Of a stretch of DNA of 18,442 nt, positions 6,001 through 9,000 are shown piece after piece (position 1 is the first letter of the stretch; every line of letters begins with the position of its first letter). The stretch lies in the IMG/VR virus record IMGVR_UViG_2526164602_000012; one strand, given 5' to 3'. The position numbers were made by a program. This DNA comes from a virus. Taxonomy: Duplodnaviria; Heunggongvirae; Uroviricota; Caudoviricetes.

Positions 6001-9000
6001 GCTGTCTGTTTCTTTTGCGGAAAGCCCGTTGAGCTTCTTCTCTTGTTTGCCAGTATTTTTCTCGCACTGGCTGAAATAGCAGTCTTCCAGTTTTTCGAAC
6101 ACTTCCCACGCCCGATCGGTTTCGAGCATTTTTGCGTGACGGGCTGCGCCGCGTTCTGTCCAGAGGATGAGGGAGCGAACGTTACGGGCGATTTTCACAG
6201 AAGGTCTTAAAGACATGCTGTGCTTAAATTCGCGCAACTCCTCATTCTCAAGTAAAAAGTAGTGCTTACCGATAACAAATCGTCCAGAATTCCGATTGAA
6301 ATTTTTTCGGATGTAATCTGGTTCTGTGCCATATAAGCTGGCAAGAAGCTCTGTAGTCACCACAGGTATATTACTAAATGAAATTATGGAGAGGGACTCC
6401 ACGGAGATGGTTTTCATGCTTTATGTCCTACTTGATATTTTGATTTACCCCTTTTGAGAGGGTGACCGGGCGCTCAAAACCGCAAGTAGTCGGCGGGCAT
6501 ATTCCCATTGCTGGTGTTGTATTAGCCGCACGCCCGGTCATAAACCAAGAAGACTGGACACAAAAAAACCGCATGTCTGTCGGGCGCGGTAACCGCTACT
6601 TGCTAAGGTGTTTTGAGCACCATGAGGCGGAATATATCCCCGTTAATGCAGCATTGTCAAACGATCTGTTCTTTAAAGACTTAACGAGAAGCCTTTTCGG
6701 GAATTTCGATCTGACAATCTTGAAATATCCTGTAGAGTACGGCGCATTTCTTCCGTCAGATGCTTGAAGGCGTTAAATTCGGCGACAGCTGCATCGACGT
6801 TATAGCCCTTGCTGTGTAGCTCGTTGAGGATGCGCATAGTTGGGCTTGGCATATCGAAGAGCACAGAAACGTCCAGGTTAAGAGTTTTTCGATCAACATA
6901 GCTCATCATGGAGTAGGGGTGATGCTCTGAAAACCACGAGAGAGGGTAGTTGATAGATAGTGTTGATTCTGGAAGCTGAAGTTGTTCTGGGATTTTTTGA
7001 CTGAAATAGCAGTCTTCCAGTTTTTCGAACACTTCCCACGCCCGATCGGTTTCGAGCATTTTTGCGTGACGGGCTGCGCCGCGTTCTGTCCAGAGGATGA
7101 GGGAGCGGGCTTTCGGGGAAATTTGTAACCCTCTTAAAGATGGTTGCAAATTTTGTGAGTTACTTAAAGTAACCCGCAAATTTTGTGAGTAGTTTAAAGC
7201 TACCCGCAATTCTTTAAGGTCATTACCAACAACTTTGAAAAAGTGTTTCCCTTCAACGAAGCGTACTTTGTTCTCATGATGATTCTGGCGAATACGCACC
7301 GGCTCAGTGCCGTAAAGCTGCGCCAAAAGTTCGGTGGTAATAACAGGAATCTGGTTATGGGTGATCGGGGAGAGAGTTTCAACAGAAATTTTAGTTGTCA
7401 TAATGACGCCCTCTGGTGGTTTCTTAATAACTCACCACCGACGACGCCAATCGTCTGGTGGTGAACTGTGCAGGGTTGGCGTAACCGGGAAACCGACCGG
7501 CGCGGATCTCTCCGCCCCCACACAGCCCACCATAATTCAGATGTGCGCGTGCATACGACAATAAAAAACACGCTCGCGGCGTGTATCTGTCGCGGTCTCT
7601 ATCCAGGACGCCAATCCCGACGCCAGATTTTGCTGGCGTTTGAGGAATATAGCCCCGAATAAATCATCACGTCAATCACCTTGTTTTCCTCGCACGATGT
7701 CTTAGCCACCGGATATCCCACAGGTGAGCCGTGTAATTGAAGGTTTTTACGTCAGATTCTTTTGGGATTGGCTTGCGTTTATTTCTGGAGCGTTTCGTTG
7801 GAAGGTATTTGCAGTTTTCGCAGATGATGTCGGTGATACTTCGTCGCTGTCGCCTCATGCAGCCCTCCTGACGCCCAGCCCGATCGCCATCAATGCCGCT
7901 TTGGATACGGTAGTAAACATCCGTCGAGGACTGATGAACGGTCGCCAAATCAGCAACATTGAGCCTTTGCTGTTTCCCTTCTTCTCCAGCCCTGTCGATG
8001 GTTCGATAAAATTAATCCGTCCATCAGTGATGATGCGAACTTCGTCAACACTCTCCAGAGCCTTGCTGAACCATCCGACAGACATATCCTCTGGCACAAG
8101 CATCACTACCGTCTGTCGCTGTTGTATGCACTGCTCAGCGGCTTTTTCCACCCACGGCCTGATATTGCTGTACGGTGGGTTATTCCAGATTGCACCGTGG
8201 CTTATCCACTCAGAATTTAGCGCGTCGTCAGCCTCAGTTAGCCAGTGAGTGCACAGAGCGTTTTTGTCGCTCGCAGCTGAATCCAGCCAGAATCCAAACT
8301 CAATATCCAGCGCAATACAAAAAAGCCAAGAGCGGCGTTTGCCAGCAGTCCTGTCGTGTGCTGGCGTATTTGATTTGATAGTCATGCAGCCTTCCCTTTT
8401 CGTTGTGACCATTCATACTCTCGCCGGGAGTCATCACTCCACCGCACGTTGCGCTCTGAGCCGAACCAGAACATGATTTCGATAAGCTCAGTCATGCTGG
8501 CCTTTCGCATTTTGCTGGTACGCACGCCAAGCATGACAACGCCACCGTCGATACCAGGCGCACTTCTTTGCTCCAGTTTTTTGGTCTTAAGCCACAGGGC
8601 AGTGAACAGGTCTTTCCAGTCTTCCGGCGCCAGCCGTTGACCATGCCATAGCACCTGACGCGAAACATCGTTCAGCATCGGCCACATGCGGTCATTCTGC
8701 GCTTTGCTGCGCCTGGGTTCTTTAACGTGGACTTCGTGGGGTGACTTGTCGTCGATGGGTAGTGAGAGAATGGCGTCTATGGCGTTATTTCTGATTGCTT
8801 CGTTGCGAAGCAGAAAGGTTTGCTTCATCTCCTGCTCTCCGGTTCCATTTTTCAGCCGCCGCAGCAACTGATGGTGCCCATGCCCCCCTGGCTTCACAGA
8901 GGTCACATTCTGCATAGCCCCACACATCAATATTTATTCCGGCCTCAACCCACAGACGAGCATTACCGCCGCAAAACGGACATTCTTTTAGCTTTGGCTG

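Follow-up and report, generated by a model that had tools for sequence, protein, structure and literature searches.

Displacement of a conserved motif in the Dam-type methyltransferase gene of an Stx2c prophage contig: five single-base changes most likely introduced by sequencing

Is the Dam-type DNA methyltransferase gene of an Stx2c prophage broken, switchable, or misread? This question is raised by an 18,442-nucleotide (nt) stretch of DNA (hereafter the window), which is the whole of contig AKLW01000047.1 from the draft genome GCA_000267165.1 of Escherichia coli O157:H7 strain TW11039. On its minus strand, a long open reading frame (ORF) matches the Pfam Dam family (PF05869). This ORF carries the LDIEFGF and NPPY motifs, and codons for DCWQTP lie out of frame relative to the remainder of the methylase, both as recognized in an earlier reading made from the sequence alone. 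That sequence-only reading took the gene to be split between two frames at an A6 tract, which is indeed seen at 8319..8324 on the plus strand (T6 on the coding, minus strand), placed the start codon at ATG 8416, and offered a pseudogene, phase variation by slippage, or a homopolymer sequencing error as explanations. Comparison with related Dam genes bore out the displacement of the motif frame but moved the start codon and revealed five lesions rather than one. Of the three options, we favor homopolymer sequencing error, and the feature is most likely not real.

Five single-base changes in the Dam gene

The closest finished relative is the Stx2c prophage in the genome F8798, and relative to it the window Dam gene contains five one-base insertions or deletions (indels). 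One A is lost at 8352/8353 (AA → A), and DNA alignment and pairwise comparisons place four T's gained on the coding strand at 8328/9, in the tract at 8319-24, at 8317, and at 8314/5. All five changes fall within 40 bases, near codons 12-24, and the four T insertions lie within 16 nt. Because the changes sum to +3, the Dam ORF stays open and encodes 176 amino acids (aa) compared to 175 aa in relatives. The deletion puts eight codons out of frame, and KDCWQTPL is therefore read as RTAGKRRS; the first added T (8328/9) restores the frame, with WLF kept, and the remaining three added T's amount to one extra codon, changing D to CI. Intact proteins read MTIKSNTPAHDKDCWQTPLWLFDALDIEFGF... (the nearest relatives start MTIKSNTP), whereas the window Dam protein reads MTIKSNTPAHDRTAGKRRSWLFCIALDIEFGF... 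Reversing all five edits yields exactly the F8798 protein. Apart from the five indels, the window DNA is identical to the F8798 allele, and NPPY, LDIEFGF, and the C-terminal 150 residues are unchanged.

The A6 tract does not divide the gene, whose ORF runs uninterrupted from ATG 8385 through 176 codons. This ATG, in the frame of the long ORF, is the native start, and the equivalent codon is the annotated start of the 175-aa Dam proteins of YYZ-2008, VT2-Sakai, and the F8798 prophage. The ATG at 8416, which had been thought to overlap the ninB stop codon, instead lies inside ninB, 32 nt upstream of the TGA at 8384..8382, and has only a weak Shine-Dalgarno context. A 38-codon ORF does extend from it to a stop at 8300, reading MNGHNEKGRLHDYQIKYASTRQDCWQTPLLAFLYCAGY and ending ...DCWQTPLLAFLYCAGY, and consists of the out-of-frame ninB 3′ end, Dam codons 1-11 out of frame, and the correctly framed DCWQTP stretch. 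Its apparently sensible N-terminus, MNGHNEKGRLHDYQIKYASTRQ, is thus an out-of-frame reading of the end of ninB and the first Dam codons, and none of 27 aligned homologues has a long N-terminal extension of this kind (0/27); all of them carry a conserved S-N-T-P 4 to 6 residues in.

Removal of one A does generate a continuous 186-aa ORF, as had been proposed, but the product is a non-native chimera rather than the native Dam. Against the Pfam Dam profile, this one-base repair scored 198.9 bits, with its first 18 residues unmatched, compared to 216.1 bits for the native protein (F8798 or the five-edit repair) and 189.5 bits for the window allele as it stands. Given its non-homologous N-terminus and its score below that of the five-edit repair, we rejected the one-base repair. 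The unrepaired window Dam matched PF05869 with E = 4.7e-56 over profile positions 1-166 of 169, above the gathering score of 28.1 bits.

The 27 full-length homologues used for motif alignment, which were 58-85% identical, came from Pectobacterium, Serratia, Yersinia, Providencia, Photorhabdus, Xenorhabdus, and others. D13, W15, T17, and P18 are kept in all, or all but one, of these proteins. The window allele lacks all four residues and is the sole sequence in the alignment without the (K/R)D-x-W-x-T-P motif. The N-terminal motif of other N6-adenine methyltransferases, motif X, contains TP; this analogy, together with the conservation, suggests that D-x-W-x-T-P belongs to the cofactor/active-site region. 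The assignment draws on these two arguments because a fold search returned only distant N6-adenine methyltransferase folds. An AlphaFold2 model of an intact family member (predicted local distance difference test score, 89.8) adopts a Rossmann-type methyltransferase fold. PCIF1/CAPAM (PDB 6irw, 6iry) has a Rossmann-type N6-adenine core like that of the intact phage Dam (Foldseek E = 1.5e-4 to 5.7e-4; template-modeling score, query-normalized, 0.55-0.63) but acts on an RNA cap substrate, is a much larger protein, and is only 14-16% identical, so that the resemblance is at the level of the fold only. The nearest fold to the model was this eukaryotic cap m6Am methyltransferase and not the Dam of E. 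coli or of the T4 type. A PDB sequence search for a solved relative of the phage Dam gave nothing significant, and PF05869 appears to have no member with a solved structure.

Distribution of the variant and character of the contig

With a 562-nt query from the window, matches were obtained in 244 phage records and at 2,200 places in E. coli (1,574 records; 1,566 complete genomes). No match in these phage or E. coli records was 100% identical, and the best was 99.1% identical. The matches listed all span 559 nt, with the exception of the 560-nt F349 pseudogene, and the wild-type 559-nt sequence contains CACGACAAGGAC ... CTCTGGCTTTTTGATGCG. When 60 matches were sampled across 1,459 E. coli records, in which no match was 100% identical either, 57 spanned the indel cluster, and all 57 had the same length, a net -3 relative to the window. 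The same wild-type stretch of 39 nt was present in 46/46 fetched loci, and the window alone had 42 nt. In IMG/VR, a 29-mer carrying the variant had 0 matches, whereas the wild-type 26-mer was found in 73 contigs. Among about 15 billion proteins, the exact 176-aa product (EIO64937.1 / WP_001455573.1) occurs in one contig; the 90% cluster to which it belongs contains 1,929 proteins. Thus, the variant is private to one assembly.

Taken as a whole, the window shares 99.8% identity with Stx2c phage 2851 and is even more similar to the F8798 prophage. Over the first 15,857 nt of the window, 13 positions distinguish it from F8798: six edge substitutions (60-93), a single-nucleotide polymorphism (SNP) at 12084, an A7/A8 difference at 12789, and the five Dam indels. 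We did not count the A7 at 12789 (A8 in F8798) as an error, as phage 2851 has no indel there relative to the window. The six edge substitutions, which fall within 34 nt at the contig start and are seen against both references, are probably a contig-end or repeat-boundary effect.

Between 17168 and 18442, the window contains four SNPs (17309, 17484, 17639, and 17763) and five one-base indels, all of the latter in A/T runs, and none of the nine changes is present in phage 2851 or F8798. No complete-genome match has fewer differences than F8798. The contig therefore carries ten private indels. Substitutions absent from both references number four in 17168-18442, in addition to the six at the contig edge. 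As a control, the finished relatives phage 2851 and F8798 differ from each other by 25 substitutions and 2 gaps over 17.7 kb. Judged by the references and by this control, the ten private indels, all of A or T, are in excess over private substitutions, which are far fewer, a pattern at odds with ordinary divergence. The changes within the 1.3-kb end segment, which lies next to IS629 and the contig end, suggest that it has low consensus quality or mixes paralogous copies.

Probable sequencing error and its alternatives

The indels exist in the assembled sequence, are private to this contig, and are accompanied there by other private indels in A/T runs. Most likely, the five Dam indels are base-calling or consensus errors that arose because this draft contig covers a repeat-rich part of a prophage or simply during sequencing, and the TW11039 prophage almost certainly has the same ordinary, intact 175-aa Dam gene as its relatives. 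A poor pyrosequencing read could combine overcalls and undercalls within one nucleotide flow, and the cluster would fit such a miscall because all four closely spaced insertions are of the same base (T) and the deletion is AA → A. As expected of 454 homopolymer miscalls, the window indels are one base long, affect only A/T, recur at several A/T runs, and occur in this draft contig alone; unlike such miscalls, two of the inserted bases extend no pre-existing run of three or more. The sequencing project used either Illumina HiSeq or a hybrid of Illumina and 454 FLX/XLR data assembled with Celera, and TW11039, at 71 contigs, is similar to other low-contig assemblies in the project's table (PMC3593324), which suggests the hybrid route for this strain. 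E. coli genomes contain up to 5 copies of the Dam gene, in different prophages, and this repetition makes draft consensus calling fragile. Mis-recruited reads from paralogues may have lowered the consensus quality. Collapsed paralogous Dam copies were rejected as the source of the variant itself, as other O157 Dam alleles (VT2-Sakai and mEp213) differ in this region by substitutions and have no indels, so that simply mixing paralogues would not yield it.

Several points weigh against sequencing error. The net change of +3 keeps the ORF open, as a selected compensated frameshift would, although this outcome would arise at random about 1 time in 3 and the point is weak. The G[T]A insertion and the frame-restoring CT[T]GG insertion extend no long homopolymer, and the Illumina coverage of a hybrid assembly should normally correct errors of this kind. 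In addition, PMC3593324 does not name the strains that were given 454 reads, and the argument is made from the assembled consensus.

If the indels are genuine, the window would contain a strain-private allele with a compensated frameshift (-1 at 8352/3, +1 at 8328/9, and then +3), an explanation that we regard as unlikely. The open ORF and the +3 sum are consistent with it, as are the absence of all four near-invariant motif residues, the 26.6-bit drop in Pfam score, and the occurrence of Dam pseudogenes in this phage group, exemplified by the CC → CCC change at another site in Stx2a_F349; a weak quasi-palindrome (8258-8267 / 8317-8326) could also template one change. However, five independent indels in 40 nt are very improbable in a gene without a single substitution relative to F8798, and the variant stretch is common to no other genome, phage, or metagenome record examined. 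The preponderance of private A/T indels over private substitutions (10 compared to 4 in 17168-18442) is likewise unlike the 2:25 ratio of the finished relatives. There is no ectopic template within the window, where a 23-mer of the variant occurs only once even with 3 mismatches allowed, and templating by the quasi-palindrome (10-nt arms, 90% complementary) was not convincing, as it would account for at most one or two inserted T's. A real allele would very probably be a loss-of-function allele, encoding a full-length Dam that lacks the motif and is probably inactive or crippled in cofactor binding, and the prophage would be in decay, its kil and DUF2528 genes having been damaged as well. The fuller picture, in which real indels leave an open, expressed, cofactor-site-dead Dam kept at full length in a prophage that is also without kil and the DUF2528 gene, is slightly more doubtful. 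The pseudogene option of the sequence-only reading applies only in a loose sense, given an open ORF that NCBI lists as an intact protein (EIO64937.1).

Other bacteria have well-known phase-variable methyltransferases, and a homopolymer inside the 5′ part of a methyltransferase gene would suit a slippage-driven switch at the A6/T6 tract. We nevertheless reject this model, which we judge highly improbable, because the tract is T5 in every relative examined (46/46 fetched loci) and a one-step change does not bring back the native protein; with T6 the ORF is open as it stands, and removing one T creates the non-native 186-aa chimera. The constant length of the stretch in all 57 sampled matches that span the cluster and the different site of the F349 pseudogene lesion also argue against a switch, and phase variation usually depends on tracts longer than six bases. 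Programmed +1 ribosomal frameshifting or transcriptional slippage at UUU-UUU-G could instead join the ATG 8416 ORF to the long ORF, and tRNA-Phe could in principle re-pair +1 on UUU_U. The relatives, however, encode Dam in one frame from the equivalent of ATG 8385, and we therefore reject programmed frameshifting, which has the least chance of the explanations considered here. The two-frame arrangement is found in no relative compared (YYZ-2008, VT2-Sakai, F8798, and the 27 protein homologues), ATG 8416 is placed within ninB with a poor ribosome-binding context, and the resulting N-terminus has no homologue. Thus, sequencing or consensus error remains our preferred explanation, and the case illustrates that a conserved motif in the neighboring frame beside a homopolymer need not mean a single slip.

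The locus in its prophage and among phage Dam genes

The locus has the ninB-dam-ninE arrangement that is usual in lambdoid Stx phages. Dam sits between ninB and ninE in the nin region, with an ORF6N antirepressor gene downstream of the module and a DnaB-type helicase gene upstream of it, and its product is predicted from sequence to be a small Dam-type N6-adenine DNA methyltransferase. The ATGA at 8385..8382, in which the Dam start codon overlaps the ninB stop, is predicted to couple Dam translation to ninB. Coordinates of these and other features are collected in the table.

Table. Features of the window. Bracketed bases are those inserted relative to relatives.
Feature	Coordinates	Strand	Remarks
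ninB, 148 aa	8382..8828	minus	directly upstream of Dam, 4-nt overlap
ninE, 60 aa	7676..7858	minus	directly downstream of Dam, 4-nt overlap
Dam, long ORF	7855..8412	minus	LDIEFGF and NPPY; Pfam Dam PF05869, E = 5.6e-56
Dam ORF as in window, 176 codons plus stop	7855..8385	minus	from ATG 8385; identical to EIO64937.1 / WP_001455573.1
Native Dam start codon	8383..8385	minus	ATGA overlap with ninB stop TGA 8384..8382
Shine-Dalgarno-like stretch AAGGGAAGG	8390..8398	minus	precedes ATG 8385
Catalytic motif IV, NPPY	8170..8181	minus	intact and in frame; columns invariant in 29-sequence alignment
One-base deletion site	8352..8353	minus	coding strand CACGAC-A-GGAC; CACGACAAGGAC in every relative
Eight out-of-frame codons	8329..8352	minus	RTAGKRRS for KDCWQTPL; adjacent frame still encodes DCWQTP
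Cluster of four extra T's (A's on plus strand)	8313..8330	minus	coding strand CTCT[T]GGCTTTTT[T]G[T]AT[T]GCG; includes A6/T6 8319..8324, T5 in all relatives
Incidental 38-codon ORF, ATG 8416 to TGA 8300	8300..8416	minus	no Pfam match
Indel, T7 vs T6	17332-17338		intergenic
Indel, A7 vs A6	17371-17377		DUF2528 gene
Indel, one T missing from T run	17778		intergenic
Indel, one A missing	17997		kil
Indel, one A missing	18030		kil
stx2A, stx2c-type B subunit gene, and three tRNA genes	1298-2679, about 2630-2880		
Q	3188-3676		upstream of the tRNA genes
IS629 copy	15857-17167		ORFs 15912-16238 and 16235-17125
DUF2528 gene	17359-17390		'ssb' in phage 2851
cIII	17800-17964		intact
kil	17933-18075		
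gam	from 18149		intact

The presence of stx2A and an stx2c-type B subunit gene confirms an Stx2c-converting prophage, and, judging from homology to phage 2851, three tRNA genes lie upstream of stx2 and downstream of Q. An IS629 copy is found on the N/exo side of the prophage; phage 2851 carries IS629 between antA and antB, and the F8798 prophage has none at either place. Near the contig end, the DUF2528 gene starts MSNIKK and, with its extra A, reaches a stop after nine codons. Two missing A's shift kil after codon 21, and its frame runs into a long gam frame; both cIII and gam are intact.

Dam proteins of the T1/HP1/VT-2 type in PF05869, including those of VT2-Sakai (BAA94133.1) and F8798 (WP_171877608.1), are products of the same gene at the same ninB-dam-ninE position, and the window product differs from these relatives in the missing (K/R)D-x-W-x-T-P motif, the extra residue, and the lower profile score described above. 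The VT-2 and HP1 members are cited as having been cloned as Dam methyltransferases (Radlinska & Bujnicki 2001; Piekarowicz & Bujnicki 1999, listed as refs 30 and 32 in PMC7556043). Stx2a_F349 (AP012530.1, 'DNA methylase (pseudogene)', 1532-2060) is a close Pankowvirus relative from O157:H7 and resembles the window in having a short-homopolymer indel in Dam. It differs in that a single added C (CC → CCC compared to YYZ-2008) near codon 76 breaks the frame, whereas the window indels cancel out. Stable lysogeny by 933W needs host Dam, whereas it is still debated what the phage-encoded enzyme does (PMC3342100).

The window adds nothing to known phage Dam biology. The WP_001455573.1 / EIO64937.1 entry, which nr lists as an 'intact' methyltransferase, very probably gives a wrong protein sequence, and AKLW01000047.1, with at least 10 suspect indels, is therefore unfit for inferring loss of dam, kil, or the DUF2528 gene in the TW11039 Stx2c prophage. 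As the feature is most likely not real, it has little biological importance, and database hygiene is the practical point. Should the allele prove real, it would represent a naturally occurring loss-of-motif mutant in a phage Dam family that is poorly characterized, and its interest for the biology of Stx prophages would be modest.

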